Part shown: one piece after another, positions 20,862-59,992 of the stretch
Layout: every line of letters begins with the position of its first letter
Position numbering within the stretch: position 1 is the stretch's first letter
Assembly (NCBI GenBank): GCA_039189765.1
Contig: JBCCYL010000004.1
Coordinates: 17,348 to 81,347, forward strand
DNA length: 64,000 nucleotides
Direction: 5' to 3'
Source of the DNA: Cyanobacteria bacterium P01_F01_bin.150
GTDB lineage: Bacteria; Cyanobacteriota; Cyanobacteriia; CAKZMO01
The notes under the pieces: model-generated
Databases searched by the model: none
The model's input: only the letters and a program-made list of their open reading frames with translations
What the model was told of the DNA's origin: nothing
Translations under genes and position numbers: made by a program

Positions 20862-20949
20862 CGGTAGTGTAGGCACTCCGCGCCACACTACCGTTTTTGG
20901 GTTCGTCTTAAAACGAAACCTTGCTATTCAATATTTTGGGAAGGTTAGT

Positions 20950-22359
20950 CTAAGCGTTAGCAACAGTTGGGCGATCGCTCTGCATTCGCTCATCTTCCAT
21001 ATCTTTTTGAACCTGTTCCGATAATGAAGGAATGCCATCATCCCCTGTAATTAATCTCACTCCACGCTTGCGAGTGAAATAATTCCAAGCCCATTGAGTC
21101 ATGACTAATAGCTTATTATCGAACTCAATTAAGTAATAGATATGGATAAAAATCCAGATAAACCATGCGGGAAAGCCAGAGAACTTGGCAAATCCTAAGT
21201 TTGCAACAGCCGCGTTGCGACCAATCACTGCCATGCTGCCATAGTCCTTAAACCGAAAAGGCACAACAGTTTGGCTTCTCAATCGCTTATTAATAACGCC
21301 ACCAATATACTCACCCTGCTGCATCGCCACAGATGCAGTTCCAGGTAAGGGGCTATCATCTTGGTGAGCGTAGTGCGCCAAATCGCCAAGGACATAGATG
21401 TTTGAATATCCTGGAACACTCATATCTTCCTCTACCATGACTCGACCAGCCCTATCAAGCTCTGCACCAGTCTTATCAGCAATGACCTTGCCCAATGGAG
21501 ACGCCTGCATACCCGCAGCCCACAGCACGGTACCAGAAAGGATTTGCTCCATCTGATCACCAGACTTGAGGGTTACAACATCACCATCAATGCCCGTGAC
21601 CAATGTTTTAGTCCGCACTGTAACCCCTAATTTCTCAAGAGAGTCTTGGGCCTTCACAGATAGTTCCGAAGGATAAGGCGGCAGCACCCGCTCCATGCCT
21701 TCGAGCAGTAAAACTGCTGTTTGGGTTGTATCAATATTGCGAAAATCTTCTTTCAAAGTGCCATAGGCCAACTCTGCCAAGGCACCCGCTAACTCCACTC
21801 CAGTTGGCCCACCGCCGACGACAACAAACGTTTGAAGCGCTTTGCGGCGAGCTGGATCAGATTCCTTCTCTGCGGCTTCAAACGCCAGAAAAATCCGACG
21901 CCGAACTTCAAGCGCATCCTCGATCGTCTTGATTCCGGGCGCAATATCAGCCCACTCATCCTTGCCAAAATAGTGATGTTTCACCCCTGTGGCAATAATA
22001 AGGCTGTCGTAGTCAACAACTTCACCGTTTTTAAGGGCAACCTGCTGATTGTCAGGATCGAAAGCAATAACTTCACCCATAAGAACCTGAACATTCTTTT
22101 GGCCCCTTAGAACAGCCCTTAAGGGAGAGGAAATATCTCCAGCGGAGAGACCGCCTGTCGCTACCTGATAAAGCAAAGGCTGAAAAAGATGAAAGTTTCG
22201 CTTATCAATTAATGTGACCTTAATATTGTCATACCCAAGAGACTTTGCTGCATAGAGACCACCAAAGCCGCCACCAACGATGACAACATGGTGAGCTTGC
22301 TTCGCTTTTTCATTCTGACCGTTAGATGATGATTGCTTTGGCGATAAGACAGCTGTCAT
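20950..22359 (-). CDS. Type II NADH dehydrogenase (NDH-2)
   Basis: Two GxGxxG dinucleotide folds (VVIVGGGFGGLYAA; VVVGGGPTGVELAG). Confidence 0.85.
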   Translation of the reverse strand: MTAVLSPKQSSSNGQNEKAKQAHHVVIVGGGFGGLYAAKSLGYDNIKVTLIDKRNFHLFQPLLYQVATGGLSAGDISSPLRAVLRGQKNVQVLMGEVIAFDPDNQQVALKNGEVVDYDSLIIATGVKHHYFGKDEWADIAPGIKTIEDALEVRRRIFLAFEAAEKESDPARRKALQTFVVVGGGPTGVELAGALAELAYGTLKEDFRNIDTTQTAVLLLEGMERVLPPYPSELSVKAQDSLEKLGVTVRTKTLVTGIDGDVVTLKSGDQMEQILSGTVLWAAGMQASPLGKVIADKTGAELDRAGRVMVEEDMSVPGYSNIYVLGDLAHYAHQDDSPLPGTASVAMQQGEYIGGVINKRLRSQTVVPFRFKDYGSMAVIGRNAAVANLGFAKFSGFPAWFIWIFIHIYYLIEFDNKLLVMTQWAWNYFTRKRGVRLITGDDGIPSLSEQVQKDMEDERMQSDRPTVANA

Positions 22360-22931
22360 AAGTCTTAATTTATATTTATAAGAATTACAATTTATACTAT
22401 TTGATAATGCAAAAATACACTACCCTAATCTGGGGTCTTCACAGAACTTTTTTGCCCAAGTGTCTTCTTTGTACTGTGGTTTCACATAGACAGCTTGTTT
22501 AACATCTTTCACTCTATAGATGTACGGCTTTACCCACAATCGCCCATAAACCGTAAACTATTCTAGTTTTTTCCGGATTCGTCATTTATTGTTTTTGCAA
22601 ACAACCTGTAAGCATAGGTGGGGCTATCCATGTGCCATTTGAGCCACTATTGTCATGGTTTGCAGAAATTAGAGACGCTCATCATTCCTATTTGACAATC
22701 CATCCCCATTTAGATCTTCAGAAGCAACATTTCCAAATCAGTGATTCCGCCCCAAAGCTGAAGTGCCTCCGATTTGGGGGAATACACAGCATATACCCTA
22801 CCACAAGCTAATTCCTTTAAATCGGTTGAGATGTATTTTAGGTGAACTTACGATAAGCCGATATGAAGGAAATGTAGAGTCTAGTATGCAATCCTGACTT
22901 GTTTTGTCCACAAGCGTAAAACACCTTAATT

Positions 22932-23498
22932 GTGAATGTGATTTGGTCTTTTATTCTATCCCTTGTGGATATTGTGGTGATGAATCAGAGTATTGCTCCG
23001 CACATCGTTTTTCTAAGTTGGCTGTTTAAAGGAAAAGCCAATACGGTGGAACGCGGATTCACCCTAATTGAGTTACTGGTCGTAATTGTTATTGGCGGGA
23101 TTTTATCGGCGATCGCCTTACCTACATTTTTAAGTCAGGCCAATAAAGCCAAAGAATCTGAAGCGCGAGTATATGTCGGTAGCGTCAACAGAGCCCAACA
23201 GACCTACTTTATGGAACAAACGGCATTTTCAAACGATATTGACAAGTTAGGTTTGGGAATATCAAAGACAACAGAAAACTATACCTATGCAACTGTATTA
23301 GATACGGATAGTGGCGATGACGTTGCCTACACCACAGCGACGCAGCAACCGACCACCAAACAGGCACTGCGGGCCTTTTCTGGTCAAGCCTGGAATGGAG
23401 TCAGTGGCAGTGGCCTTCTGTCTTTTGCCATTGTCTGTGAGAGCAAACCTGGTGGGAGTCCACCAACCATCGCAAGTCATCAGTGCCCTAGCCCCTAA
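22932..23498 (+). CDS. Type IV pilin-like protein (prepilin with N-methylation motif)
   Basis: G/FTLIELLVVIVIGGILSAIALP class III signal peptide. Confidence 0.7.
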   Translation: MNVIWSFILSLVDIVVMNQSIAPHIVFLSWLFKGKANTVERGFTLIELLVVIVIGGILSAIALPTFLSQANKAKESEARVYVGSVNRAQQTYFMEQTAFSNDIDKLGLGISKTTENYTYATVLDTDSGDDVAYTTATQQPTTKQALRAFSGQAWNGVSGSGLLSFAIVCESKPGGSPPTIASHQCPSP

Positions 23499-23571
23499 AG
23501 AACTCAAAATATAGGCGAAAAGGGGATCAACTTTAAGCGGGTAGTGGGGGCGATCCGCACCCACACTACAG

Positions 23572-25926
23572 CTATCCTTTAGCTACCGACTCAAGGGCTT
23601 GTTCCATCAAAATAATTTGGGAGCTTTGAATTTCCTCCCCTTCAGCAGGCTGGCGCTGTTGATATTGGCCATCCGCTTGCAGTTCCCAAGCCTGGCGGTT
23701 ATCCTTAAGCATCAGGTCCATCACTTCGTATAACTTCTGAGCGATCGCCGTTTCTTCAATCGGAGTTACGGCTTCAACCCGTCGATCCAAGTTACGGGGC
23801 ATCCAGTCCGCACTGCCAATAAAGCATTCAGGCTGATCATTATTTTGGAACCAAAAAATCCGAGAGTGCTCTAAATAGCGCCCAATAATACTGACCACAC
23901 GAATATTTTCACTGACATTGGGTAGACCAGGTCGCAAGCAACAAATCCCTCGGATAATCAAATCAATTTGGACCCCTGCTTGAGATGCTTCGTAAAGCTT
24001 GGCAATCAATTTTTGATCGACAAGAGAGTTCATCTTGGCGACAATCCGGCCCGGCTGGCCTGCTTTTGTCGCATCAATTTCCCTCTGAATTAAACGATTC
24101 ATACGATGCCGTAGGCTAACTGGAGCAACCAAAAGCCTGCGATATTCTCGCTGTTTGGAATACCCAGTCAAAGTATTAAACAGATCCGTTAGATCTGCAC
24201 CCAGTTCTTTGCGACAGCTTAATAGAGCAACATCAGTGTAAAGTTTTGCTGTTTTGGGATTATAGTTTCCAGTGCCAATATGGACATAGCGACGGATGCC
24301 ATCCTCTTCCCGACGAACGACTAGAACAACCTTTGTGTGGGTTTTTAGACCCACTAATCCGTAAACCACATGAACCCCAGCCTTTTCTAATTTTCTAGCC
24401 CAAATAATATTATTTTCTTCATCAAATCGGGCTTTCAATTCAACCAAGGCGACCACTTGTTTGCCATTTTCCGCTGCGGCAATCAGAGCTTTAATAATAG
24501 GAGAATCACCTGAGGTTCGATACAACGTCATTTTAATGGCCAGGACTTTGGAATCATGAGCCGCTTGGGTAATAAATCGCTGGACAGTGGCCGAAAACGA
24601 ATGATATGGATGATGCACCATCAAATCCCGCTGCCGAATAAGGGAGAATATATCCTCCCTCTCTTCCCCATCCCGTAAGGCACCTGGTAAGTCGCTGATA
24701 TCAAGCATTTGAAATCTGGGGGGAACAATGGGCGTCCAGGGAGTATCCTTTAGCTTTGCCAAGGGGATTCTTAAAAAAGACATCATGTCTTTGAGATTAA
24801 GCAGACCTGGTAGTTCGTAAACATCACTATTTCGGAGACCCAATTCTTTCATTAACGTTGAACGAACCAAGGCAGGGGCAGAAGTTTGAATTTCCATGCG
24901 AACAACAGAGCCTCCCAAGCGTCTTTTACGTAGCTCCTGCTCAATCGCCAACATCAGGTCATCGGCTTCATCTTCCTCCACTTCTAAATCGGAATTGCGA
25001 GTGATGCGAAAAACACAATATTCTAAAATTCTCATTCCAGGAAAGAGAAATTCTAAGTGGTGGGCAATTACTTCTTCTACCGGTACGCCCACCCATAGGG
25101 GATTAACCACATCATTACCGTCTTTAGAGACCAGATTAGACACTGGCTCAGAGACTGGCTCAGAGACCGGCTCAGAGACTGGCTCGGAGGGCTGTTCAAT
25201 CGATTGAATAGACTGAAGATGCTCTGGTAGCTGAATAAAACGAGGAGATGGAATTTTGACCCGCGCAAAACGTTCGATATCGTTCGCTGGGTCACGCATA
25301 ACCACTGCCAGATTAAAGCTGAGATTAGAAATGTAGGGGAAAGGATGACCTGGATCAACGGCCAAGGGGGTCAAGACAGGAAATACTTCATCTTCAAAAT
25401 ACGTCTGCAGATATTGCTTTTGTTCTGGCCTAAGATCCGCGTAGTTAAGAATATGAACACCATGCTTCTTGAGTTCTGCTCTCAACACATCTTCGCAGTG
25501 TTGGTGCTGATGAGTAACCATTGGACGCAGCTGTTTACTAATAGCGTCCAATTGGGCTTGGGGGGTGCGTCCGTCAGGTGTGAGTTTTGAGACAGCAGCC
25601 TCGACTTGCTGCTTAAGACCAGCAACGCGAACCATAAAGAATTCATCGAGATTGGAACTAAAAATCCCCATAAATTTGAGGCGTTCCAGCAAAGGGGTTC
25701 TAGAATCAATTGCTTCCGCTAACACTCGACGATTGAATTCCAGCCAACTTAACTCTCGATTGAAATAGTAATTGGACTGAAGTAGTTGCTCTGGGGGACT
25801 GGGGATGGCCTTATCGCTTAAATTAGATGTTTTTGGGGCTGCTCGTTTTGCTGTGCGCTTAGCTGGGTTAGATTTGGTTGAACGTCGAGGCATGGGACAA
25901 TCCGTAGTAACTAGCAACTCGGTCAT
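23572..25926 (-). CDS. ppk: Polyphosphate kinase 1
   Basis: Full-length PPK1 with conserved H-site and two PLD-like HKD regions; contains in-frame (SEPV)4 repeat. Confidence 0.9.
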   Translation of the reverse strand: MTELLVTTDCPMPRRSTKSNPAKRTAKRAAPKTSNLSDKAIPSPPEQLLQSNYYFNRELSWLEFNRRVLAEAIDSRTPLLERLKFMGIFSSNLDEFFMVRVAGLKQQVEAAVSKLTPDGRTPQAQLDAISKQLRPMVTHQHQHCEDVLRAELKKHGVHILNYADLRPEQKQYLQTYFEDEVFPVLTPLAVDPGHPFPYISNLSFNLAVVMRDPANDIERFARVKIPSPRFIQLPEHLQSIQSIEQPSEPVSEPVSEPVSEPVSNLVSKDGNDVVNPLWVGVPVEEVIAHHLEFLFPGMRILEYCVFRITRNSDLEVEEDEADDLMLAIEQELRKRRLGGSVVRMEIQTSAPALVRSTLMKELGLRNSDVYELPGLLNLKDMMSFLRIPLAKLKDTPWTPIVPPRFQMLDISDLPGALRDGEEREDIFSLIRQRDLMVHHPYHSFSATVQRFITQAAHDSKVLAIKMTLYRTSGDSPIIKALIAAAENGKQVVALVELKARFDEENNIIWARKLEKAGVHVVYGLVGLKTHTKVVLVVRREEDGIRRYVHIGTGNYNPKTAKLYTDVALLSCRKELGADLTDLFNTLTGYSKQREYRRLLVAPVSLRHRMNRLIQREIDATKAGQPGRIVAKMNSLVDQKLIAKLYEASQAGVQIDLIIRGICCLRPGLPNVSENIRVVSIIGRYLEHSRIFWFQNNDQPECFIGSADWMPRNLDRRVEAVTPIEETAIAQKLYEVMDLMLKDNRQAWELQADGQYQQRQPAEGEEIQSSQIILMEQALESVAKG
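25139..25189. repeat. 12-nt tandem repeat gagac(t/c)ggctca x4 inside ppk (encodes SEPV repeat)
   Basis: seen in sequence. Confidence 0.8.
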
Positions 25927-26014
25927 TTATGGCAGAGTGCAACGTCATTATAGAGGCAGTATTTCTTTTGCCCCACAATATGCCTCATACACACCACAGA
26001 ATTATCATAATTTT

Positions 26015-26095
26015 GGAGTTTCGTTTCAAGACGAAACAAAATTAACGATAGAGGGAGCGCGACGCGCTTCTACTCCCCGCCTAAAGTTGATACTC
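26015..26095. repeat. Dispersed composite palindromic repeat copy (gtttcgtttcaagacgaaac module + gcgcgacgcgc palindrome)
   Basis: family recurs at least 10 times in window. Confidence 0.6.
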
Positions 26096-26113
26096 TAATT
26101 TTGCAAGGCATCA

Positions 26114-26530
26114 ATGGCATTTTTATATCGACGAAAAATTTACTTTAAAGATACGGATGCCGCAGGGGTGGTTTACTTTGCCAATGTTTTGTCCATGTGT
26201 CATGAAGCATATGAGGCTTCTTTACAAGCATCAGGGATTAATTTGCGGACCTTTTTTGGCGATCGCCATCGAGCTATTCCGATTGTGCATGGAAGTGTAG
26301 ATTTTTTCCAGCCGATGTTTTGTGGCGAGACATACACTATCGATATGGTCCCCACATTGGTCAAGCCCAGCGAGTTTTCAATTACGTATCAGGTCTATTC
26401 TCACCTTGAACTAAACGAGCAAGCAAGTGCCAAAGCTTGTAGTCGCCACGTATGTATCGATCCTTCGACACGAAGGCGACTGCCGTTAGATAACGACATG
26501 ATGTCTTGGTTGACCCAATATAACTCATAG
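26114..26530 (+). CDS. 4HBT-fold acyl-CoA thioesterase (YbgC-like; possibly DHNA-CoA thioesterase)
   Basis: YFKDTDAAGVVYFANVLSMCHEA hotdog-fold N-terminus. Confidence 0.65.
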   Translation: MAFLYRRKIYFKDTDAAGVVYFANVLSMCHEAYEASLQASGINLRTFFGDRHRAIPIVHGSVDFFQPMFCGETYTIDMVPTLVKPSEFSITYQVYSHLELNEQASAKACSRHVCIDPSTRRRLPLDNDMMSWLTQYNS

Positions 26531-26565
26531 CCCACAGGGAATAGCCCACAGTCCACATTCATAGG

Positions 26566-26650
26566 CCAGGGTTCCAACGTAAGGCAAAACAATTTTGTGG
26601 GAAATGGGAACACGATGCGTCCCCATTTCCCACCTTAAGTGCCCACAGCT
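26566..26650. repeat. Dispersed palindromic repeat copy (gtgggaaatggg...ccccatttcccac + cttaag)
   Basis: related to copies at 38205..38365. Confidence 0.5.
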
Positions 26651-27002
26651 CACAGGGATAGAAAATACGGAAAAACCCTGGCACGATGGCCAGGGTTAGA
26701 ATGCTGTCAAGATACAAGGATTAAACAGACAAAGTAGACATAAGAAGGTCCGAAATAAGGTGGACCGATAAATATAAGTTGTTCCGTATAACGCTTAGCG
26801 ATGTGCTAACCATCAACCTATAAATAATCTACCGTTCCGCTAGTGAAGGGCGAATAAATTGGTCGTAAAGCTTTTGCAAAGAAACTTTTTAATAGCCAAA
26901 AGCATTGATGTGAGTGAGTTTAAGGGATCTGAGTTTTCACCGAGAGCGCCTTATTGCATCCCAGAATTTACGGACTGGAGCATTGTTTACACATCTTTAT
27001 CC

Positions 27003-27938
27003 TTAACTTGATAGTTCCGCGACAATCGTACGATAGGCATCATTATCCAAGCCTTTGCCCTGATCTGCAGTGGCTGGATCGATTTGCTCATTGAGATCTT
27101 CGATACGGCTACGGGTAGAGGGATGAGTACTCAAAAATTGAGGCGGAGCACCAGAACTTAATAGTTTTTCCATAAAGGCGGGCATGGCCGAGGGGGCATA
27201 GCCTGCTTTGGTGATGTTGTCGAGTCCGTATGTGTCGGCTTCCCTTTCATCGGAACGACTGTGGGGACGGGCAACACCAAGTTCCACCGCAATATTAACC
27301 AATACGCTATCTTCTACCCCTGCTGCCGACATGAGACCTTGAGCGATCGCAGCCTCTCTCAACTGCTTCACTGAATGGCGACCCACAACATGACCAATTT
27401 CATGACCAATGACGCTTGCTAATTGGGCTTCATTATCCGCTGCTTTCATCAGTCCAGTGGTTACATAAATATACCCACCCATCGCAGCAAAGGCATTAAT
27501 CGCATCGTCTTCAACCACCTGGAAGACATAGTCGATATTGGGACGCTGGCTGTGGGGCACTAGGCCATTTCCAATATCTTCCACATATTCAATAATCTCG
27601 TCATTATCGTCATACAGCGTAAATTGTCCACCGGGTCCAACCAACTCATCATTAATTTGAGACCCGAGAGACATTTCCTGACGGTCAGACATATTCGAAA
27701 GCTGAATAATTTGCGCCCCTCGAAACAACAGTTCAATCAAGGAAATCGCTGGGGTTGATTGGGCGGTGCCGACGACTAACCCCAAAGCCACTAAGCTTGA
27801 GATAAGGCCGTATACCCAACGGCGATGGCGCTGCCGAAAGAATGTAAAGAGCTGATTAACCATTGTTCTACTAATGAGTAAGCGTCTATAAATGACATTT
27901 GTTATTAGCCAAAAGTCTGATGGTATGGCAGTCGTCAC
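27003..27938 (-). CDS. M48-family zinc metallopeptidase
   Basis: HEIGHVVGRH zinc-binding motif; N-terminal signal/TM (true start may be the internal Met about 25 codons in). Confidence 0.75.
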   Translation of the reverse strand: MTTAIPSDFWLITNVIYRRLLISRTMVNQLFTFFRQRHRRWVYGLISSLVALGLVVGTAQSTPAISLIELLFRGAQIIQLSNMSDRQEMSLGSQINDELVGPGGQFTLYDDNDEIIEYVEDIGNGLVPHSQRPNIDYVFQVVEDDAINAFAAMGGYIYVTTGLMKAADNEAQLASVIGHEIGHVVGRHSVKQLREAAIAQGLMSAAGVEDSVLVNIAVELGVARPHSRSDEREADTYGLDNITKAGYAPSAMPAFMEKLLSSGAPPQFLSTHPSTRSRIEDLNEQIDPATADQGKGLDNDAYRTIVAELSS

Positions 27939-28284
27939 TTTAATGGAGACATTAGTGGTGATTGCTTCACTAAGCTAAGCAACCATAATAAATATTTATG
28001 TCTTAACCAGAGCGTCTACGACTTAAATGTGGGGGAGGTAGGCCCATTGTAAAACCTTCTTTGGAGGAGATGATCGGAGGGATAGCCAATGCAATGAGCT
28101 GGCACAGGGGTATAGATGGTATGTCTAATGTTGGCTGATTTATGCTGGTCTTAACCTATTCTTATTATTTTTCTGTAACTATCTAAACAGCTTGGGTTTC
28201 GCCCTAATACGAAATAAAAGCAACGGTAGTGGGGGCACAAAGCGCCTCCACTACCCAATATCAACTTGAAAGCTCAGATCCGAA

Positions 28285-30261
28285 ATGAAACAGGAGAAGA
28301 TGCCAAAACCATCACCAGAGGCCGCAGCCTGGTCGAACGGCAAACTAATCGCTGTAGTATTAGCATGCTTAAGTGTAGGAGTTATGGGTGTGGCAGCCAT
28401 TCGAGAGGTGACGACGTTTATGGAGAACGCTCCAGTGCTGTTAACCGATCCATTTTTGCAACGCCCGACAGAAACCTCTGTAAACATTGTCTGGTTTACC
28501 GAATTTCCTGGCGTTGAGCATCGAGTGGACTATGGAGAAACTTTATCCTTTAGTGTAGAAGCGACAACAACTCAACTAAGCCGCACCCGTGAAGATGAGC
28601 AGTCTTATATTGGGACGCAACTCGGCGATGGCAGTATCTACAGTCAACCGACATTACGGCCGATTTGGCGGCATGAAGTAGTTATCCCCAATCTCCAAGA
28701 CCATGTTCAGGGTAATAAACAAGATAATGTGCAAGGCGGTGAGCTTAGCCAGGGGCAAAACATTCCTTATCGGGTCACAAGCCTCACCAGAGCCGGACGT
28801 AGGGCAAGCAGTGATATTTTTGCACTTCAGGCGTTGCCACAGATAGGCCAACCGCTCAACATTTTATTAACGTCAGATCATCAGTTAAAGGCAATGACCC
28901 CTGCAAATACACAGGCCGTTGTCGAAACAGTCGGGCGGGTTGATGCAGTACTCATGGCAGGGGATTTAGTAAACATATCCGATCGCGCCTCGGAATGGTT
29001 TGATGACAGTCGGGGAAAAGCTTTTTTCCCCGCACTACAGGGGAGAGCAGGCCCAAAGATTGAGCAAGACGAAGACTCAGCTACTTTTGCCGGTGGAGCA
29101 TTGATCCAGTCTGCTCCAATTTTTACCGCGATTGGCAACCATGAGGTGATGGGGCGGTGGTCAATGACTGATGATTTAAACACTCAGTTTAACGATCCGG
29201 TGCCGAGGGCGATCGCCCAGCAAAATTATCAATCCCAAGCAGATCGCCTTAATCCGGCGAACGATAGTGCTGTTGCCAATAATTGGATGACCAACCAGTC
29301 ATTTAATACGATTACCTACGATGAAATCTTTTCGTTACCTAAAAACGACCAGGGGCATTCCAAATACTACGCCGTTACCTTAGGGAATGTGCGTCTGGTA
29401 GTGCTTTACATCACCAATATTTGGCGTCCCCCAAGCTTACATGCCAGCACCAAAGGTCGCTATCGTGAGGCAGATAACGTTCTCCACGATCAGAGTCGTT
29501 GGGGCTACGGCCAGCATATTTTCGAGCCGATTGGCCCTGGTAGCAAGCAATATGAGTGGCTAGTGCGGGAGGTGCGATCGCCTTCGTTTACAAATGCTAA
29601 ATACAAACTGGTGATGTTTCATCATCCGCCACACTCCCTTGGTGACAACATCGTTCCTGCTTACACAGACCCGGTCCAAATGATTGACCGTTTTGAAGAT
29701 GGCACCATCAAAGCAGTACGCTACGAATATCCTAAACATCAGGATTATTTGATGCAACATGTGGTGCCATTACTCGAATCCGCTGGCGTAGATTTGACGT
29801 TTTTTGGTCATTCCCACGTGTGGAACCGTTTTGTTGGACCGACCGGCATACATTTTCTGGAAAGTTCCAATGTGGGCAATACCTACGGAGCGTTTTGGCG
29901 TAATCGAGCGAACGTGGAACTAGATGGCAGTGAGAAAACGGGCAGTGAGAAAACGGGCAGTGAGAAAACGGGCAGTGAAAAAAACGCCAATGCACTCAGT
30001 GGCCAAGAACGCCGTCATCTTCCCATTGGTTACAGTGAGGACTATGTTCCTTGGGACGATCCCAACGGATTAGAACCTGTGATGCCTAATATTGCCCCAC
30101 TGGTAGATGACTTGGGGCAACCCCAACCTTTTATTGCCAGCAATGACATCACGGTATTCAGTATCTTAAACACTGGTACAGGCTTGGTGAGTAGCTATAG
30201 ATTTGACACTCGAACACCGGAGCAACCTGCAATTAAGTTTGACGAGTTTTCTCTGGATTAA
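28285..30261 (+). CDS. Secreted calcineurin-like metallophosphoesterase (purple-acid-phosphatase-like) with (GSEKT)4 repeat
   Basis: GDLVN, GNHE, and GHSH phosphoesterase motifs; N-terminal TM. Confidence 0.7.
   Translation: MKQEKMPKPSPEAAAWSNGKLIAVVLACLSVGVMGVAAIREVTTFMENAPVLLTDPFLQRPTETSVNIVWFTEFPGVEHRVDYGETLSFSVEATTTQLSRTREDEQSYIGTQLGDGSIYSQPTLRPIWRHEVVIPNLQDHVQGNKQDNVQGGELSQGQNIPYRVTSLTRAGRRASSDIFALQALPQIGQPLNILLTSDHQLKAMTPANTQAVVETVGRVDAVLMAGDLVNISDRASEWFDDSRGKAFFPALQGRAGPKIEQDEDSATFAGGALIQSAPIFTAIGNHEVMGRWSMTDDLNTQFNDPVPRAIAQQNYQSQADRLNPANDSAVANNWMTNQSFNTITYDEIFSLPKNDQGHSKYYAVTLGNVRLVVLYITNIWRPPSLHASTKGRYREADNVLHDQSRWGYGQHIFEPIGPGSKQYEWLVREVRSPSFTNAKYKLVMFHHPPHSLGDNIVPAYTDPVQMIDRFEDGTIKAVRYEYPKHQDYLMQHVVPLLESAGVDLTFFGHSHVWNRFVGPTGIHFLESSNVGNTYGAFWRNRANVELDGSEKTGSEKTGSEKTGSEKNANALSGQERRHLPIGYSEDYVPWDDPNGLEPVMPNIAPLVDDLGQPQPFIASNDITVFSILNTGTGLVSSYRFDTRTPEQPAIKFDEFSLD
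29926..29986. repeat. 15-nt tandem repeat ggcagtgagaaaacg x4 inside phosphoesterase gene
   Basis: seen in sequence. Confidence 0.8.
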
Positions 30262-30276
30262 GATGTATTCGCGATG

Positions 30277-31221: not shown

Positions 31222-31520
31222 ATTGAATCCCCTAGGTTTCTACTGCTTCTTTTAAGGGGGTGTTGTGGGGTGCTCCGCGCCCCACAACACCATCAAATCC
31301 TTCCCAGCTTAGATAATAGGCTATTAGTCTAACGAATTATGGCTGGGCCAACTGAAGCGATCGCCTCCCTTTTATCCCCGCAACACCGCTATCGGCCTAA
31401 GTAAGACTGAAAAAATAACGATAAAAATGCCCCTGCTTTAACAGCAAGAGCATTACTAATTATGCCACTCTAAATGAAAACTACTCTACGAAAATCATCC
31501 TAGTAAAAGGCTTTAGTTAG

Positions 31521-31994: not shown

Positions 31995-32464
31995 ATGTTG
32001 TTAACTGTTCAAGGACTGTTTATGTCCTCTGTGTGCTTACAGTATTTATAATAGGATAAGCTCTCTAATTGCTATGTTCGGTTCTCTGGAAAGCTTAATA
32101 GGTGATTCCTTTACAAGCTAATTACAAGTTCATCAAACTAGCTTATAACTTAAGCCGGGAAAGATTGAACGAGTTTCTGGGACGCGGAGCGCCCCAGAAA
32201 CTCGCCTTAAAATACAAGCCATCAAACCGTCTATTGGAAATCTCTTTTACCCTGATTTGGCATTGAACGGGGATGGTTATTAAGCAGGCTCACGTCATGA
32301 TTGAGGTATAGAAGCAAAATAGCTGGTTGACTGACAAAACTATCTAGAATCCTCATCCTGCCTTGGGTCAGGAAAGCTTGCCCCTACCTTGCCCAAATCC
32401 CCTGTAGTGGCGCAGTTTCTGCGCCTAATATTCAAAATTGAGCATTTATTTAAATTCCCATTCC

Positions 32465-38204: not shown

Positions 38205-38365
38205 AACCTTTTACGCAGGGATATCAACGTAAGGAGGGAAATAGGGGCGCGACGCGCCCCCATTTCCCACAAACTTGTTCCGCCTTAAGTTGGAACCCAT
38301 ACTAGAGTACCAACTTAAGGTGGGAAATGGACGCGACGCGCCCATTTCCCACAAACTTGTTCCAC
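38205..38365. repeat. Two tandem copies of dispersed palindromic repeat (gggaaat-ggggcgcgacgcgcccc-atttccc ... cttaagttgg)
   Basis: seen in sequence. Confidence 0.6.
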
Positions 38366-38385
38366 AACTCAATCAGGCTGCTGGC

Positions 38386-38943: not shown

Positions 38944-39148
38944 GCATGGGTTATCGACAAAGCACAGCCATCATCATGTTAGTTAAGATATGATTTCCCT
39001 TCACTGGGCGAAGGGAAATCATATTTATGTTCAAATAGTGTCCACTGGCTATATGACCGGATCGTATCATTCTTAACACAAAAAAACACATAGATTTGGG
39101 CGTAAAATAAGTTGCCGTATGAGCCCAACTTAAACCGAGGAGTTACCC

Positions 39149-43525: not shown

Positions 43526-43600
43526 GGGTTTCGTTTTAAGGCGAAACAAAAATGACGGTGGTGTGAGCGCAACGCGCCCACACGATTTGTTTAGAGTTTA
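43526..43600. repeat. Dispersed composite palindromic repeat copy (ggtttcgttttaaggcgaaac + ggtggtgtgagcgcaacgcgcccacac)
   Basis: near-identical to copy at 57617..57695. Confidence 0.6.
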
Positions 43601-43746
43601 TCCCCTCATTGAAATAGGAAGATCGAAATTTAATGTCTCTTTCACCCTGTTTACATGATCAGGGTTCCCTACGTTCACCTTTGATTTTGATAAAGTTCGT
43701 TTAATACCGAAAAGGGTTAGTAGCAGTGTAGAGTGTTGTGTTTCCA

Positions 43747-43784
43747 CTCTTTACGTCGATAGCTATTGTTATCGACGTAAAGAG
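43747..43784. repeat. Perfect 15-bp hairpin ctctttacgtcgata-gctattgt-tatcgacgtaaagag
   Basis: seen in sequence, 260 bp upstream of 44042 gene. Confidence 0.7.
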
Positions 43785-52324: not shown

Positions 52325-52400
52325 TTTTAAAGGTTTCGTTTTAGAGCGAAGCGCTACTAATGCTAGTGGGCGTATAGAGCGCCTCTACGCCTTTAATTCC
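52325..52400. repeat. Dispersed composite palindromic repeat copy (ggtttcgttttagagcgaagcgc...)
   Basis: family member upstream of invertase gene. Confidence 0.5.
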
Positions 52401-52501
52401 CATTTTTTACCTGATGGGCAGCCAAGTTGCCCATCAGGTTTGAGATTTAAATCACATCATTGTGATTTCAGCCATAAACCACCATATGTCACCCGACCAC
52501 T

Positions 52502-53923
52502 ATGAATATATCGATTGATGCTACCCAAATCCCCTATTCCGTTGATTGGATTAGAGAAGCTCAGGATTTATTGAATGCCTCTATTGTGGAGTACCAGGGG
52601 AAACCCATTGGTACTGTTGCAGCCCGGGATCAAGGGGTGGAAGCATTAAATTATGACCAATGTTTTATTCGTGATTTTATCTCTTCAGCTCTTTTTTTTC
52701 TAACTGATGGTCGGACTGATATTGTGCGACATTTCCTGGTGGAAACGTTAGCGCTACAAAATAGCGATAAACAGATGGATCGGTTTAATGCCGGGCAGGG
52801 GTTGATGCCCGCTAGCTTCAAGGTGGAATCATGGGAAGAGGATCAATACCTTACGGCGGATTTTGGAGAGCATGCCATTGGTCGGGTGACGCCAGTGGAT
52901 TCTAGTTTTTGGTGGTTATGGCTGTTGAGAGCCTATGTAAAAACAACCGGGGATATCGCTTTAGCTCATCGGCCTGAATTTCAAGAAGGGATCATGCGCA
53001 TTCTCAAGCTTTGTTTGGCCGATCGCTTTGACATGTACCCAACGTTATTAGTGCCGGATGGATCCTTTATGATTGACCGTCGCATGGGAGTATCGGGACA
53101 TCCGTTGGAGATTCAAGCCCTATTCTATAGTGCATTACGTGCTGCTCGTGAACTGCTGACGCCGGGTTGTAAACGTCGAGATGTGATGATGCACGTGATT
53201 CATCAACGTCTCAGTACCCTCAATTTTCACATTCGGGAATATTATTGGCTTGACCTCAAACGCCTGAACGATATCTATCGCTATCGTGGTGAGGAATTTG
53301 GCGCTACAGCAGTCAATAAATTCAATATCTATGCGGACTCTATTCCTTTATGGCTAACAGAGTGGATGCCTGAAAAAGGCGGATATTTAGCTGGAAACTT
53401 GGGGCCAGCCCAAATGGATTTTCGCTTTTTTACGTTGGGTAATCTGCTGGCCATTATGGGATCTTTAGCCAGTCCCAAAGAATCCCAATCGATTATGGAT
53501 TTAATTGAGCAGCGATGGACGGATTTGGTGGGGTACATGCCCATGAAGATTTGTTTTCCCGCAGTGGAAGGTGAAGAGTGGAAAATTCTTACAGGGTGTG
53601 ATCCCAAAAATGTTCCCTGGTCCTACCATAATGGCGGCAACTGGCCCGTGTTGCTATGGCCGTTAACCGCAGTGGCAATCAAAACAGGGCGAAGAGAGCT
53701 GGCAGAGAGGGCGATCGCCATTGCTGAAAAGCGATTGAGCCGAGACGAATGGCCTGAATACTATGATGGCCGTAATGGCCGCCTAGTGGGTAAAGCCTCC
53801 CGTAAATATCAGACTTGGACAATTACTGGCTTACTTTTATCTAAAGCCCTTCTAAATAACCCCGAGCATTTGTCCCTGTTTTGCTTTGATGAAGATCCAG
53901 CTCTATCATCTTGGACTTACTGA
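52502..53923 (+). CDS. Alkaline/neutral invertase (GH100)
   Basis: Full-length match in character to cyanobacterial/plant neutral invertases ([13 protein letters not shown], (alpha/alpha)6 barrel). Confidence 0.85.
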
Positions 53924-54066
53924 CAGTGACCCTGCATTTAAACTCGAAGCGATCGCACTAACTCATTTAGGTTAATGCGATCGCTCTTTTTTATGCTTTA
54001 CTGATCTAACGAGAAACTGGGACGCGCTGTGCCTTAGTTTTCTGTCTTAAATTCCCTCCATACAGA

Positions 54067-55452
54067 CTAGCGACCAATGCCCACGTATTGGAAGCCTAAA
54101 TCTGTCAGTAGCTGCTGGTCGAGGAAATTACGACCGTCAATCATAATTGGGGTATTCATTTTAGACGCCATCTTGGCAAAATCTAGCTCTCGGAACTGTT
54201 TCCAATCGGTTACCAACACCAAGGCATCACATCCCTCTGCCAGCATTTCGGCATCAGTCTCAACAAGCACGTTGGATAAACCATTTCGTAATCCAGACTG
54301 AGACACAATTGGGTCATAGGCCTTAACCCGTGCTCCCAAGCGGCTGAGTTGCTCAATTAAATCGAGTGCTGGCGCATCACGCATGTCATCAGTATCAGGC
54401 TTAAACGTTAAACCCAGGAGACCGACAGTTTTACCTTTCAATATCTTCAGCACTTGCTGTAGCTTTTCAAGGGTCATTAGACGCTGACGCTTATTCACGT
54501 CTACGGCTGCTTTCAACAATTGCGCTTCATAACCATAGTCATCCGCCGTGTGAATCAGAGCTGCAACATCTTTTGGGAAACATGATCCACCCCAGCCAAT
54601 GCCCGCTTGCAAGAATTTACCACCAATTCGAGAGTCCAAACCAATGCCATTTGCGACCTGAGTAACATCAGCTCCAACGCGATCGCAAATATTAGCAATC
54701 TCATTGATAAAGCTAATTTTGGTTGCCAAGAAGGTGTTTGCTGCATACTTGACCATCTCTGCTGAACTCAAGTCTGTTACAACCACAGGTACGGTAGGCA
54801 AGGACTTATCCTCTGCATACTCACGGGATACGATGGGTGCATACAGTTCCTTCATCATGGAAATAGCGCGATCGCTATCACTGCCCAAAACGATACGATC
54901 AGGGTTAAAGGTGTCATAGACAGCAGACCCTTCTCTCAAAAACTCAGGGTTACTGACAACATCAAAGTCTGCCGTAATTTCAGGCTCAGTTACGGTGCCT
55001 CCGCCACTGGGGACCAACGCTTTCTTTCGCTCAGCTACGCCATCCAGTACGATCATTCGCACCCAGTCTCCTGAGCCAATAGGCACAGTAGACTTATTAA
55101 CGATGACTTTATAGCCACCATTTAGATGAGTTCCAATCCCTTTTGCCACAGCTTCAACATAGCGAGTATCACTCTCACCAGTTGGTAGGGGAGGCGTTCC
55201 TACCGCAATATACAGGACATCTCCGTGGGCAACTCCTGCGGCTAAGTCAGAGGTGAATTTAATACGACCAGATTGAATAGAACTCTGCATCAATTCAGAT
55301 AGACCTGGCTCGAAAATGGGAGATTGCCCAGACTGCATCAATTTAACTTTTTCTTCATTATTGTCAACACAGATGACATCGTGACCAATGTTGGCAAGAC
55401 ATACACCGGTAACAAGACCAACATATCCAGTTCCTATTACACAAACTTGCAT
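54067..55452 (-). CDS. ugd: UDP-glucose 6-dehydrogenase
   Basis: MQVCVIGTGYVGLVTG NAD fold, catalytic GGSCFPKD. Confidence 0.9.
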   Translation of the reverse strand: MQVCVIGTGYVGLVTGVCLANIGHDVICVDNNEEKVKLMQSGQSPIFEPGLSELMQSSIQSGRIKFTSDLAAGVAHGDVLYIAVGTPPLPTGESDTRYVEAVAKGIGTHLNGGYKVIVNKSTVPIGSGDWVRMIVLDGVAERKKALVPSGGGTVTEPEITADFDVVSNPEFLREGSAVYDTFNPDRIVLGSDSDRAISMMKELYAPIVSREYAEDKSLPTVPVVVTDLSSAEMVKYAANTFLATKISFINEIANICDRVGADVTQVANGIGLDSRIGGKFLQAGIGWGGSCFPKDVAALIHTADDYGYEAQLLKAAVDVNKRQRLMTLEKLQQVLKILKGKTVGLLGLTFKPDTDDMRDAPALDLIEQLSRLGARVKAYDPIVSQSGLRNGLSNVLVETDAEMLAEGCDALVLVTDWKQFRELDFAKMASKMNTPIMIDGRNFLDQQLLTDLGFQYVGIGR

Positions 55453-55687
55453 CGGACAACTCCTTATTTATCAATGAACGATTAGTGTGCTTTCGAATTA
55501 ATCCTAATGACGGATGGCCAGCTTTAGCCGGTTAATGTGGGCATGAAACATTTCAAGTAGACATTTCTGACTGTCCCAAAGCGGCACCTATACAGGCATG
55601 AGTTAGGACAGAAGAGAGGAGGATATTTTCAATATCTAGTCATTGATTCCGGCGAACTATAGTGCCCCCTCTAGCTATATCGATGAA

Positions 55688-56656
55688 TTAAACAGCTACT
55701 GATTCCGCCTGTTTCTCTACGCGATTACGAAAGTCCTCAATCATCAGCTCAAGCCCTTTTTCAAGAGGGATAGTGGGTTCCCACCCTAAATATGTTTTTG
55801 CCTTAGTGATATCAGGCTTCCGGCGTAAGGGGTCGTCCTGAGGAAGAGGCTGGAACTGAATATTCGCATTTGGATTGATTCGCTTCTGAATTTCTTCTGC
55901 CAGCTGTAATATGGTGTACTCTCCTGGATTACCCAAGTTAACAGGCCCTATATAGTCTCCGTTCATCAGCCGCATTAAGCCTTCAACCAAGTCGGAAACA
56001 TAACAAAAACTGCGGGTTTGAGAGCCATCTCCATAGACTGTCAACGGGTTACCTTGCAGAGCTTGTACCACAAAGTTGCTTACAACACGGCCATCGTTTT
56101 CCAGCATCCGGGGGCCATAGGTGTTAAATATTCGAGCAACTCGGATATCCACATCATTCTGGCGATGATAGTCAAATGCCAAAGTTTCGGCAACTCGCTT
56201 ACCTTCGTCATAACAGCTACGAATACCAATAGTATTTACATTGCCTCTATATTCTTCTGGCTGGGGGTGTACATCAGGATCCCCATACACCTCAGACGTG
56301 GAGGCTAATAAGAAGCGAGCTTTTACCCGCTTAGCCAAGCCCAACATATGTAACGTTCCCATCACGTTTGTTTTAATGGTTTTAACCGGATTGTATTGGT
56401 AATGAACCGGCGATGCAGGACAAGCCAAATGATAAATTTGATCTACTTCTAACCGAATCGGTTCAGTGATATCATGACGAATCATTTCAAAGTAAGGATG
56501 GTTAATCCACTTCAAAATGTTCTGCTTGCGCCCAGTGTAGAAATTATCTAAACAAACAACGTCATGGCCATCGTTCATCAGCCGATCAATTAAGTGGGAA
56601 CCAATAAATCCAGCTCCACCCGTGACTAAAATTCTCATAGTTTTTTGATTTATCAC
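55688..56656 (-). CDS. uxs: UDP-glucuronate decarboxylase (UDP-xylose synthase)
   Basis: [16 protein letters not shown], YxxxK SDR motif, high similarity in character to UXS family. Confidence 0.9.
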
Positions 56657-57084
56657 TAGAAATGCGATTGGTCATAGATAGTTCGTCTATATCTTAATTT
56701 TCTATTAAGATATAAGTATTGCACCCAAGCTAAGTTATTCCCGATTGAATTGTCCAAGGGGCAATAGGACAATTTCACTCAACATTCATACGGCTAGGCG
56801 CAACATGAATTACGGTTGAACGATAATTTAGCGAAAGATTGCCTAAAAGTGAAACATACAGGTTGGCATGGTAAGCATCAAATATCTTCGATCAGTATGC
56901 CCACGTAACTTTTTTTTCTATCGTATCGCCCAGATTAAGCTAGAATTCATGCAGGAGCTTATGAAAAATGTAAGCTCCGATGAAATGATTGACTCTCCAG
57001 TAAAGCGGAGACTTTACGATAATATGTGAATTGTGAACTACACTCTGTGTTCTGCGGAGTGTTGATCGGTAAAATACGGAGAGT

Positions 57085-57468
57085 ATGATGAATATTAAGT
57101 CTTTGCGCCACAAGCTAGGAATGATCTTGGCTGTCGCCCTTCTAGTAGTGTCCAGTGTATTTGTTGCTTCTTCACCAACTTTAGCGGAAACGATTCAGGT
57201 TAAGATGGGTTCAGATACTAGTCAGCTAGTGTTTGATCCAAACGACATTACTGCTAGTCCTGGTGACACTATTGAGTTTGTCGTAAACCAGATGGCTCCT
57301 CACAATATTGTGTTTGACTCTGACGCTTTGAAAGCAAGCAACGACCAGCTAATGTTTGCGCCTGGAGATAAGTCTACTGTGACTGTCCCCGATGCACCTG
57401 GAACCTACAATTTCTACTGTACTCCTCACCGTGGTGCAGGAATGGTTGGGAAGTTGACCGTTCAGTAG
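57085..57468 (+). CDS. petE: Plastocyanin precursor
   Basis: Signal peptide; type-1 copper ligands H..C.PH..M (YCTPHRGAGMVGK). Confidence 0.9.
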   Translation: MMNIKSLRHKLGMILAVALLVVSSVFVASSPTLAETIQVKMGSDTSQLVFDPNDITASPGDTIEFVVNQMAPHNIVFDSDALKASNDQLMFAPGDKSTVTVPDAPGTYNFYCTPHRGAGMVGKLTVQ

Positions 57469-57616
57469 ATAGCCTTAGTGTTTCATGGAATGTTCAGTGT
57501 GTTCTTGTACCTGCCACTCTGGGTCGCTATCGGTTTCAGAATTTGTTGGTTAATGAGATGCACTTTTTGATATTTTTGAGGTCCGGGGAAGCTTTAGATT
57601 GCTTCCCTTTTTTTAT

Positions 57617-57695
57617 TGGGGTTTCGTTTTAAGGCGAAACAAAATTAATGGTGGTGTGGGCGCGTTGCACCCACACCACCCGGCCTAAAAGTTGA
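57617..57695. repeat. Dispersed composite palindromic repeat copy downstream of petE
   Basis: ggtttcgttttaaggcgaaac + ggtggtgtgggcgcgttgcacccacaccacc. Confidence 0.6.
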
Positions 57696-57736
57696 TGCCT
57701 TTTATTCGACTGTTTAGCCTTTGTTGCACCTTGCGT

Positions 57737-59704
57737 TTAAGGTGGATAATCTTCATCATGCGAGTTCTTCAAGTAGGTGTAATGTTGCAGCGATCGCCCA
57801 TAGGTCTGTAGCAGTAGCTGAGCCTCGTCTAACGTAATGGACTCATCCTGCAACGCCTGCTCTGTGCGACGGCGTAAGTTTTCTAGAAGCGCATCTATAT
57901 CATAAGCAACTGCATTAAGGACTTGCCCAATCGTTTTGCCTTTAATGACTTGGTCAACCTGATACCCCTTGGCAGTGAGACATATTTGAACAATGTGAGT
58001 CTCTCCAAACAGGTTATGGAAACTGCCCATAATTTCCTGGTATGTTCCTCCCAAAAATAAGCCCAAGAAATAGGGACGATCTGGTTCCAAAGGGTGGAGG
58101 TTTAACAAGGGCTGTCTTTCGTTGCGATAGGGAAAATGACTAATCTTGCCATCACTATCGCAGGTTAAATCAGCTAGCGTTGCCTGGCAACTTGGATATT
58201 CGTTTAAGCGATGAATAGGCATAATGGGGAATAATTGACCGATAGCCCAAGAGTCAGGTATGGAACGAAATACAGAAAGGTTAATGTAGTAAATGGACGC
58301 CATAATCGAGTCTAACTCCATGATATCGTCCGACACATACTCCGCTTGACGAGCTTCTTGACGAACAATATTAAGAATACGATGACAGGCTACCCAGTAA
58401 ATTTGCTCAACGGTGGCTCGATCCGACATGCTCAGGTAACCCAGCTTGAAGAGGCTCAACGCCTCTTCTTTACATTGAATAGCGTCGTGATAAGCTTCCT
58501 GATAATTTTGAGAGGTGATCGATTCATACGCCTCCCACATATTACGTAAAACCAACGGCAGAGACTGAGCTTGTATAGCTGTTGGGGGCGTGAGATTGAC
58601 GCTAGTGTTTGGTGTATTAGTATCACTGCTGCCCAATACATCAAATATCAGAACGGACTGATGAGAAGCGATCGCTCGTCCGCTTTCACTAATGAGAGTG
58701 GGAACAGACACCTGACGTGCTTCACAGGCATCTTTTACCGCGGCCACCACATCATTGGCATAATTTTGCATGTTGTAGTTTTTAGACGCAGGACCATCAG
58801 TTTTGGAGCCGTCATAATCCACTGCCAGTCCTCCACCCACATCTAAAAACTGCATATTTGCCCCTGATTGCACCAGCTCCACATAAATCTGGCTGGCTTC
58901 CCGGAGCGCGTCTTTGAGCACGCTAATAGAGGAAATTTGAGACCCAATGTGAAAGTGAAGCAGTTGAAGGCAGTCTAAATGATGATGCGATCGCAGCGTT
59001 TCCACTACCGTCATAATTTCGGGAATCGTTAGACCAAATTTGGCACGATCGCCCGTCGTTTGTGCCCAACGGCCACTTCCTTTTATGCTCAGCTTGACCC
59101 TCACTCCTAAAATAGGGCGAATGTTCAGACGGTGACTGACGTTTAAGGCTAGATAGAGTTCCGAGGGGCGCTCCAATACAATAATAGGTCGATGGCACAG
59201 TCGCTGAGCTAATAAGGCGGCTTCAATATACGGTTCATCTTTATATCCATTGCAAATCAACAGGGAGTTGGGAGTGTTTAAGGTTGCCAAGGCAATCATT
59301 AGTTCTGGTTTAGACCCCGCTTCCAGCCCCAATTGATGAGTCATGCCAAAGCGCACCACATCTTCAACTAAATGACGTTGTTGGTTGCATTTAATTGGAA
59401 ATACGCCTTGGTAAGCACCTGGATAGTCGTACCGGGCTATCGCCTTTGCAAAACAGGCATTCAAACGCTCAATACGATCCGCTAATATATCGGGAAACCG
59501 GATAATCAGCGGTAGTTCTAACTGCCGTTGCTTGAGCGATTCTACTAGCTGAAACAAATCTAAGGTTCCACCGCGATCGCCCTTCGGTGAGACGGTAACA
59601 TGCCCAGCGGCATTGATCGAAAAATAAGGTTCTCCCCAGCCATGGAGATTGTATAGTTGCTCACTATCTTCAATTTTCCAGGCATCGACTGACTTCTTGA
59701 TCAT
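57737..59704 (-). CDS. speA: Biosynthetic arginine decarboxylase
   Basis: Full-length SpeA-type PLP fold-III decarboxylase. Confidence 0.9.
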   Translation of the reverse strand: MIKKSVDAWKIEDSEQLYNLHGWGEPYFSINAAGHVTVSPKGDRGGTLDLFQLVESLKQRQLELPLIIRFPDILADRIERLNACFAKAIARYDYPGAYQGVFPIKCNQQRHLVEDVVRFGMTHQLGLEAGSKPELMIALATLNTPNSLLICNGYKDEPYIEAALLAQRLCHRPIIVLERPSELYLALNVSHRLNIRPILGVRVKLSIKGSGRWAQTTGDRAKFGLTIPEIMTVVETLRSHHHLDCLQLLHFHIGSQISSISVLKDALREASQIYVELVQSGANMQFLDVGGGLAVDYDGSKTDGPASKNYNMQNYANDVVAAVKDACEARQVSVPTLISESGRAIASHQSVLIFDVLGSSDTNTPNTSVNLTPPTAIQAQSLPLVLRNMWEAYESITSQNYQEAYHDAIQCKEEALSLFKLGYLSMSDRATVEQIYWVACHRILNIVRQEARQAEYVSDDIMELDSIMASIYYINLSVFRSIPDSWAIGQLFPIMPIHRLNEYPSCQATLADLTCDSDGKISHFPYRNERQPLLNLHPLEPDRPYFLGLFLGGTYQEIMGSFHNLFGETHIVQICLTAKGYQVDQVIKGKTIGQVLNAVAYDIDALLENLRRRTEQALQDESITLDEAQLLLQTYGRSLQHYTYLKNSHDEDYPP

Positions 59705-59814
59705 TCTGTTTACCTTTTTCTAAAGAGGCATCATTATGTGCGCCTTTTTCTGAAGAGGAGACCTTTTGCGGAGCCAATATCGGCAAATAATTTTCTGTTA
59801 CTGGTACAGATATC

Positions 59815-59870
59815 GCTTGAGCAGAACCGGCTTGAGCAGAACCGGCCTGAGCAGAACCGGCCTGAGAAGT
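59815..59870. repeat. 15-nt tandem repeat c(t/c)tgagcagaaccgg x3 upstream of speA start
   Basis: seen in sequence; creates spurious ORFs on both strands. Confidence 0.75.
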
Positions 59871-59917
59871 CCATTCTTGACTTACCATTGCTTAATCCTA
59901 TTCATATCCAACTTGGG

Positions 59918-59992
59918 TATCAACTTTAGACGGGTGTTGTAGCGACGCGCCCACAACACCGTTCATTTTATTTCGCCTTAAAATGAAACCCT
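59918..59992. repeat. Dispersed composite palindromic repeat copy (reverse orientation)
   Basis: gacgggtgttgtagcgacgcgcccacaacaccgttc + tttcgccttaaaatgaaac. Confidence 0.6.

Follow-up and report, generated by a model that had tools for sequence, protein, structure and literature searches.

What are the palindromic repeats that are scattered between the genes of a cyanobacterial contig, and how did they come to lie there? The question is raised by a stretch of 64,000 nucleotides (the window) from Cyanobacteria bacterium P01_F01_bin.150 (contig JBCCYL010000004.1, positions 17,348 to 81,347), where an initial annotation had listed at least ten intergenic copies of a repeat composed of a small hairpin (module A) and a variable GC-rich palindrome (module B). 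[quoted passage not shown] The repeat family is real, and all ten listed positions hold the element. We find that the repeats are very probably copies of one ~80-bp non-autonomous DNA transposon, a MITE. MITEs are an already known kind of element, common in cyanobacteria, and this family is not described in the literature searchable here. What is added here is that shared ends tie the MITE to an insertion sequence (IS) whose protein is known only as DUF6399, and that the loop of its central palindrome occurs in both a flip and a flop orientation. Of the earlier interpretation, the MITE-like, lineage-specific dispersed element stands, and the REP-like nature and the terminator or insulator role are not supported.

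A covariance model built from 52 copies and run with filters off over the window detects 14 copies, all within positions 20,096-59,991 (Table 1; copies are named by their first position). Three of them (20096, 23522 and 28194) had been overlooked, and copies 31243, 32140 and 52331, which score 18-26 bits, have diverged or degenerated. A complete copy consists, in order, of the left end GGGTTTCGTTTTAAGGCGAAAC, a short A-rich spacer, a central GC-rich hairpin and the right terminal inverted repeat (TIR) CCGCCTAAAGTTGATACCC. The left end, which contains the left TIR and folds on itself, is module A, and the central hairpin, whose stem of 14 bp carries a loop of 3 nt, is module B; both described sequences are thus present, as parts of one ~80-bp unit rather than as separate modules. 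Once the copies are put in one orientation, a conserved right end, ...CCTAAAGTTGATACCC, is also seen. Module A as originally written, a 19-mer, finds no match even with three mismatches because the real unit has one extra T, and the gapped form GTTTCG-N8-CGAAAC occurs exactly three times in the window against none expected in shuffles. The window has 20 near-perfect hairpins with 12 or more pairs, eight of them module B, compared with 0-3 in shuffles.

Relatives of the element were sought by scanning one genome per species with GGTTTCRTTTYAAGRCGAAAY, which returned 55 loci: 50 in the metagenome-assembled genome (MAG) "Cyanothece sp. SIO2G6", two in a Leptolyngbyaceae MAG and three unrelated chance matches. 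The SIO2G6 loci hold ~60 copies in 309 kb, with the consensus GGGTTTCGTTTTAAGGCGAAAC-AAAGATAA-CGGTCGTGTGGGCGC-TTC-GCGCCCACACGACCG-CCTAAAGTTGATACCC. The unit is 77-82 bp long in 43 of the 50 complete copies and has no open reading frame (ORF) inside, and this small size (<~300 bp) without coding capacity is that of a MITE. In TIRs of the SIO2G6 type, the left end agrees with the reverse-complemented right end at 13 of 18 positions (GGGTTTCGTTTTAAGGCG and GGGTATCAACTTTAGGCGG); in window copy 38219, it does so at ~16 of 19.

Target-site duplications (TSDs) show that insertion of the element duplicates 8 bp of target DNA. Among the 50 complete copies, an 8-bp duplication is exact in 16 and has one mismatch in 14 (30 of 50 with at most one mismatch), and alternative lengths of 5, 6, 7, 9, 10 and 11 nt give only one or two perfect matches, at 5 and 9 nt. 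The window copies retain six to eight of the eight duplicated bases. Insertion is further supported by empty sites in a relative, whose syntenic contig (HAD protein 80% identical) keeps the gene order ycf66-MIF-HAD-NDH2-pilin. There, the MIF-HAD gap measures 19 nt and the HAD-NDH2 gap 2 nt, where the window has the 75-bp copies 20096 and 20847, and the covariance model finds no MITE copy in that contig. The MIF-HAD gap is only 19-20 nt in the relatives L180, L181 and L182, and L180 combines a 2-nt HAD-NDH2 gap with a HAD C-terminus that differs from that of the window. In L181 (3190-3300), the gap between HAD and NDH2 is occupied by another hairpin, GAGTGGATGCCTTTGCACCCACTCC with TTTTC after it; this one looks like module B as well as like a terminator, and may be either a solo remnant or a terminator of independent origin.

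Such presence/absence polymorphism, together with many dispersed copies, is typical of a MITE, and because of the 8-bp duplication and the empty sites we read the element as a MITE rather than as a REP element, an RNA gene or a palindrome that arose by chance. The MITE-like and lineage-specific character claimed at the outset is hence borne out by TIRs, TSDs, the relative's empty sites and an autonomous IS with the same ends (see below). Known bacterial MITEs include the Correia elements of Neisseria and, in cyanobacteria, which are especially rich in them, Nezha and the MITEs of Anabaena and Microcystis (PMC10969869, PMC11602168). The present family resembles them in being small, non-coding, multi-copy, intergenic and hairpin-forming, with TIRs and a TSD, and in being occasionally fused to gene ends. 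It appears to have a sequence, termini and an 8-bp duplication of its own, and it differs in being very short (80 bp), with a discrete central GC hairpin instead of a long-TIR fold. The terminal sequences of the element were not found in the literature searched, and blastn of the consensus against a plasmid collection returned nothing relevant.

The same evidence bears on REP and REPIN elements, extragenic palindromes spread by RAYT, a tyrosine transposase of the IS200/IS605 type, through recognition of single-stranded hairpins. Like them, the window repeats are numerous short palindromes, rich in GC, that lie between genes in both orientations and have compensatory changes in the stem. REPs, however, lack TIRs and target duplication and carry GTAG or CGTC tags (PMC3116915, PMC3733652), whereas our element has clear TSDs and TIRs and no conserved GTAG or CGTC tag on the hairpin or in the consensus, and the IS with matching ends encodes a different kind of protein. 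Because of these TSDs and TIRs, a REP/REPIN origin is very unlikely.

That the repeats might be HIP1-driven chance palindromes had been raised along with their description. HIP1 (GCGATCGC) is indeed over-represented, with 71 sites in the window against 0.8 expected. The element consensus contains no HIP1 site, and a conserved 80-bp architecture, target duplications and the presence of copies in other genomes go beyond chance; HIP1 is not part of the element, and a by-product of HIP1 is ruled out as its source.

The copies in the window, with a mean pairwise identity of 61% and decayed duplications, are old, and they belong to several subfamilies; the SIO2G6 copies, at 88%, are young. In neither set is an autonomous version seen: when inverted TIR pairs spaced by 0.12-4 kb were sought in both the window and SIO2G6 loci, nine came up, each formed by two separate MITEs. 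Two loci at which the left end runs into other sequence were considered as autonomous elements and rejected, L018 being a truncated copy and L040 a copy adjoining other repeats. In L040 (SIO2G6 contig JAAHGY010000155, minus strand, start near 346-366), the MITE breaks off inside the hairpin and continues into tandem ~100-bp copies of another repeat (...CCCAGGACGGGAGAGGGACTTCAATCCGG...), which suggests a nested insertion or a rearrangement at the palindrome.

The variability of module B is itself ordered. In its stem, 12 of 14 pairs have changed on both sides and 95% of cells are paired, a level reached by none of 500 shuffles, and slid controls of the helix pair at 30-50%. Within the main subfamily, module A does not covary. 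A family of small structured RNA genes under selection on RNA structure would also have a strongly covarying central helix and stable predicted folds such as those seen here (for the DNA of copy 38219, -21.7 kcal/mol, z = -5.0). One-sided stem changes, however, comprise ~25 G-T-type and 16 A-C-type mismatches, and such similar numbers count against selection acting on the transcript of a single strand, where A·C would not be tolerated. The loops also occur in both orientations, the copies carry target duplications and TIRs, no promoter association is seen, and Rfam matches only tRNAs at the gathering threshold and nothing at E up to 0.5 across 20-60 kb. An RNA gene family is therefore highly improbable. 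Most of the one-sided changes are transitions in the loop-flanking GCGC (GTGC/GCAC on either arm; hairpin columns 49-51 and 55-57 of the alignment), which would fit deamination of methylated cytosine.

The orientation of the loop appears to have been randomised. In SIO2G6, 21 loops read GAA/AAA and 18 read TTC/TTT (binomial test against 1:1, p = 0.75), and all four combinations of loop class with each of three unlinked markers are present. Window loops likewise include the inverse pairs GTT/AAC, GTC/GAC and GGA/TCC, the AAC loop of copy 43526 being the inverse of the GTT loop of copy 57619. In palindromes, loop inversion combined with multi-base compensatory change has been described as the signature of replication template switching (PMC8794818). 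We infer that the "variability" of the palindrome comes from subfamilies, from compensatory changes and from loops that flip often, a pattern that replication template switching fits best: switching within the palindrome would copy one arm from the other and invert the loop, on top of subfamily divergence. The likeness to the published quasi-palindromes extends to stems kept perfect by multi-base compensatory changes; unlike those, which were followed along a species phylogeny, the changes here are read across paralogous copies of a mobile element, as a pattern only (PMC8794818). We speculate that the palindrome may act as a flexible hinge by which both ends come together, and that it may be required if an element this short is to transpose. 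A similar frequency of both loop orientations is also seen in the flip/flop of parvovirus terminal repeats, which arises at molecule ends by hairpin-primed replication, whereas the palindrome of the MITE is internal.

The position of the copies relative to genes is consistent with tolerated insertions. All 14 window midpoints are intergenic, as had been claimed, in a stretch with a coding fraction of 0.80 (chance probability ~1e-10), and over these 40 kb the copies account for ~14% of intergenic sequence. Two window copies overlap gene 3' ends, by 15-16 nt, and 58 of 59 copies overall are intergenic. The genes flanking the window copies are ordinary housekeeping genes by Pfam assignment. The statement that copies often lie downstream of convergent genes proved overstated: the occupied gaps in the window are ~4 convergent, 5 divergent and 4 co-directional, and among 48 classifiable copies 24 lie in co-directional, 18 in divergent and 6 in convergent gaps, the rarest class.

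These counts also bear on the view that the repeats are host-selected regulatory signals, intrinsic terminators or insulators whose function drives their spread and conservation. A U-rich stretch follows the hairpin on the antisense strand, copy 20847 places a terminator-like hairpin directly after the HAD gene, and two of the 14 window copies pass a simple scan for a hairpin with a T-tract, on the antisense strand only. The other 12 fail, the sense strand has no T-tract, many copies lie between divergent genes and few between convergent ones, and at the corresponding sites related genomes lack the element. Nor is there an orientation bias: of 32 gene 3' ends that face a copy, 17 read the sense strand and 15 the antisense strand. 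Selection for regulation is thus quite unlikely to be the reason why the element exists, and the terminator is rejected as an overall account, although single copies such as 20847 and 57619 may act as incidental terminators. From the few terminator-like copies, the intergenic placement, the absence of orientation bias and the lack of an Rfam match, we conclude that the MITE is best seen as selfish DNA, tolerated between genes and with incidental effects on some neighbours. One such effect is that the last four codons of the HAD gene (GHQL) and its stop codon come from the right end of copy 20847; this new C-terminus and an occasional terminator-like hairpin would be by-products of insertion.

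Which protein moves the MITE was approached through its ends. The best-preserved ones, those of window copy 38219, suggested the TIR query GGGTWYCAACKTWAGGMGG, which was scanned across metagenomes. Among the matches listed are several MITE families of 80-140 bp with a common GGGTAYCAACKTAAGGCGGGAC, a sister 80-bp family that has the same kind of central hairpin with loops GAA/TTC, and a longer element at which the assembly of many contigs stops. In its complete form this longer element measures 1741-1752 bp, has the inverted ends GGGTATCAACGTAAGGCGGGAC / GGGTATCAACTTAAGCCGGGAC and contains a single ORF. Seven MITE ends in the window match the TIR consensus of this IS with at most three mismatches, compared with 0.02 expected. 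An IS with matching TIRs and an 8-bp TSD is present in metagenomes, in Acaryochloris and in one Joint Genome Institute (JGI) genome. In Acaryochloris sp. "Moss Beach", identical 1752-bp copies lie on the chromosome and on a plasmid, the chromosomal one flanked by the TSD AATTGATC. Another copy interrupts the rve gene of an IS3 element, and excising the IS with one TSD, GCAGCATG, restores an ORF of 280 aa. The evidence for duplication was taken from genome-quality contigs rather than metagenome contigs, and from these TSDs it follows that the IS and the MITE have both their ends and the 8-bp duplication in common. The IS protein would thus recognise the shared ends and move the MITE in trans. 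In one metagenome contig (Ga0172365_10033419; L106, 565-1671), a gene for an ISKra4-family transposase (NCBIfam E = 1e-67) adjoins the IS, in an IS-rich region.

The ORF of the IS encodes a protein of 534 aa that is not annotated as a transposase, with an N-terminal helix-turn-helix/winged helix and a C-terminal DUF6399 domain (Pfam E = 9e-51). Its 567 homologues carry names that point to cyanobacteria, are annotated as hypothetical, DUF6399 or DNA-binding proteins, and typically lie on ~1.75-kb contigs, as is the case with collapsed repeats. D143 (GADETFF), D197 (LVSDGA) and E449 (SSAVEGRNGY) are invariant in 51 diverse members. An AlphaFold model (predicted local distance difference test, pLDDT, 79) shows the winged helix, then b1-b2-b3-a1-b4-a2, a long helical insertion and the DUF6399 part; the two aspartates directly follow b1 and b4 in an RNase-H-like strand order, in a region of low pLDDT. 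Judging from the invariant residues and the model, the protein is probably a DDE transposase. The literature searched does not mention DUF6399.

The partner IS is possibly a distant relative of the ISL3 family. ISL3 elements make an 8-bp target duplication, have ends beginning with GG and encode a single long ORF within 1.3-2.3 kb. The partner IS agrees in its TSDs, in its GG-initiated ends (GGGTATCAAC...), in its single long ORF and in its size, and the protein shows weak similarity to Pfam DDE_Tnp_ISL3 past the second candidate aspartate, with sub-threshold matches in 8 of the 51 members. Membership is nevertheless not established, because the best of these matches scores 17.6 bits against a curated cut-off of 23, the NCBIfam ISL3 transposase model gives no match, and the partner protein ends in a DUF6399 domain and contains a long helical insertion. 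Searches of PDB by sequence and profile matched only the N-terminal winged helix and not the catalytic part, and hhalign against the neighbouring ISKra4 transposase found nothing.

Taken together, we put forward tentatively, with a chance that we place a little below even, that a widespread cyanobacterial IS family, missed by annotation and ISL3-like at most, has DUF6399 proteins as its transposases, that this IS spawned a superfamily of 80-140-bp MITEs with ends GGGTAYCAACKTAAGGCGGGAC, and that in the 80-bp members template switching flips the palindrome until loop orientation is randomised. Several observations weigh against the reading of the repeats as a MITE with this partner IS. The predicted active-site loops have low confidence, Foldseek against PDB gives no significant match (its weak top hits, at E 0.26-1.4, include IS621, Mos1 and the integrase of mouse mammary tumour virus), and no NCBIfam model matches the IS protein. 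The left TIR of the main subfamily, as noted above, is only 13/18 identical to the right. No clean duplication is present at the Acaryochloris plasmid copy of the IS, and none was found around the copies in two metagenome contigs (L109 and L130), where the lack is attributed to chimeric assembly across a high-copy repeat. Neither an autonomous IS nor a DUF6399 gene was found by tblastn of DUF6399 proteins in the window or the fetched SIO2G6 loci, so mobilisation in trans in these genomes is inferred. Finally, template switching is read from the pattern, and part of the covariation might stem from selection that acts on a DNA or RNA structure of master copies, or from gene conversion among copies.

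Table 1. The 14 MITE copies of the window and one candidate solo hairpin, by position; scores are in bits.
Feature	Position	Strand	Score	Details
Overlooked earlier; fills MIF-HAD gap; divergent left half	20096..20170	+	32.6	TSD GCTAAGGC/GCTGAGGC (7/8)
Between convergent HAD and NDH-2 genes	20847..20921	-	58.7	On + strand, hairpin followed by GTTTTTGG
5'-truncated, overlooked earlier; between pilin-like gene and ppk	23522..23587	-	40.8	16-nt overlap with ppk 3' end; right TIR GGGGATCAACTTTAAGCGG fits IS TIR consensus
Complete; between divergent ppk and thioesterase genes; loop GAC	26016..26095	+	76.9	TSD TAATTTTG/TAATTTTG, 8/8 if element start is GAGTTTCG
Copy of GTGGGAAATGGG subfamily	26569..26648	+	57.3	Antisense terminator-like site 26633-26597, - strand
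Overlooked earlier; left end and hairpin intact, right end rearranged	28194..28274	+	68.2	TATCAACTT motif inverted at right end; ends 10 nt upstream of ATG at 28285
Divergent relative; perfect 12-bp hairpin (31259-31291)	31243..31322	ambiguous	17.7	TTTTAAGG on one side
Divergent relative; hairpin of 15 pairs, 1 mismatch (32170-32204)	32140..32220	.	26.2	
Complete, second subfamily; loop GTC	38219..38298	-	79.8	Best-preserved TIRs, GGGTTCCAACTTAAGGCGG and GGATATCAACGTAAGGAGG; each end 2-3 mismatches from IS TIR consensus
5'-truncated; tandem, 6 nt from copy 38219	38305..38370	-	37.5	TIR match GAGTACCAACTTAAGGTGG
Complete; between divergent genes; loop AAC	43526..43605	+	80.1	TSD TCTTTGAA/TCATTGAA (7/8)
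Degenerate; module A recognisable, hairpin and right end decayed	52331..52401	+	22	
Best-preserved copy	57619..57700	+	90.5	Terminator-like calls on both strands
Complete; upstream of arginine decarboxylase gene; loop GTC	59915..59991	-	76.8	TSD CCGTTGGA/AAGTTGGA (6/8); TIR GGGTATCAACTTTAGACGG
Possible solo hairpin resembling module B (TATGGTGTGTGC...GCACACCATA), in a convergent gap	12505..12538	+	17.4	Weak, partial match; model positions 29-62 only

Individual copies add further detail. Copies 31243 and 32140 form a separate subfamily, because they have flank motifs in common, and the membership of the hairpin at 12505 in the family is uncertain. Copy 57619 sits in the T-tract of the terminator hairpin of a plastocyanin-like gene (57585-57608; GGGGAAGC...GCTTCCCT TTTTTTATT), its TSD, TTTTATT, being the T-tract itself, and its antisense strand resembles a terminator for the arginine decarboxylase gene. 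Two genes are bracketed by inverted MITE pairs, ppk (23572-25926) by the pair spanning 23522-26095 and arginine decarboxylase (57737-59704) by the pair spanning 57619-59991. They look like composite transposons, which is probably a coincidence because copy density is high. An independent assembly of the same strain (Logan contig SRR22824305_488899) stops inside a copy that matches 57619.

We further note features of the window that are separate from the MITE. Perfect hairpins with 15-bp stems at 38988-39024 and 43747-43784 are intergenic, unrelated in sequence and not members of the family. A near-perfect 44-nt palindrome of 20 pairs at 60992-61035 (GATATCCCTGAATATATATCTAGAGATATCTATTCAGGGATATC), also unrelated, lies just upstream of a Ser/Thr kinase/WD40 gene at 61063. 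At 6331-10423 (+), 31 tRNA genes are packed on one strand within ~4.1 kb, with most anticodon families represented and several genes duplicated (Gln x4, Leu x5), and no MITE copy lies in or near this array. Such tRNA gene clusters have been reported in some cyanobacteria, and this one may be an acquired island.

These findings matter at several levels. For genome analysis, the repeats break short-read assemblies and explain assembly breaks, and masking the family would avoid false calls of small RNAs, terminators or conserved motifs. For the evolution of genes, a housekeeping gene has had its C-terminus and stop codon replaced by those of one copy, and another copy has landed in the T-tract of a terminator. 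Dozens of paralogous perfect 14-bp palindromes, with flip and flop at ~1:1, form a handy resource for studying how bacterial template switching works; if switching is indeed their cause, the randomised loops would be a natural, genome-wide read-out of its frequency. The shared ends, in turn, link DUF6399, an uncharacterised Pfam family of hundreds of cyanobacterial "hypothetical" proteins, to a testable function as transposases.

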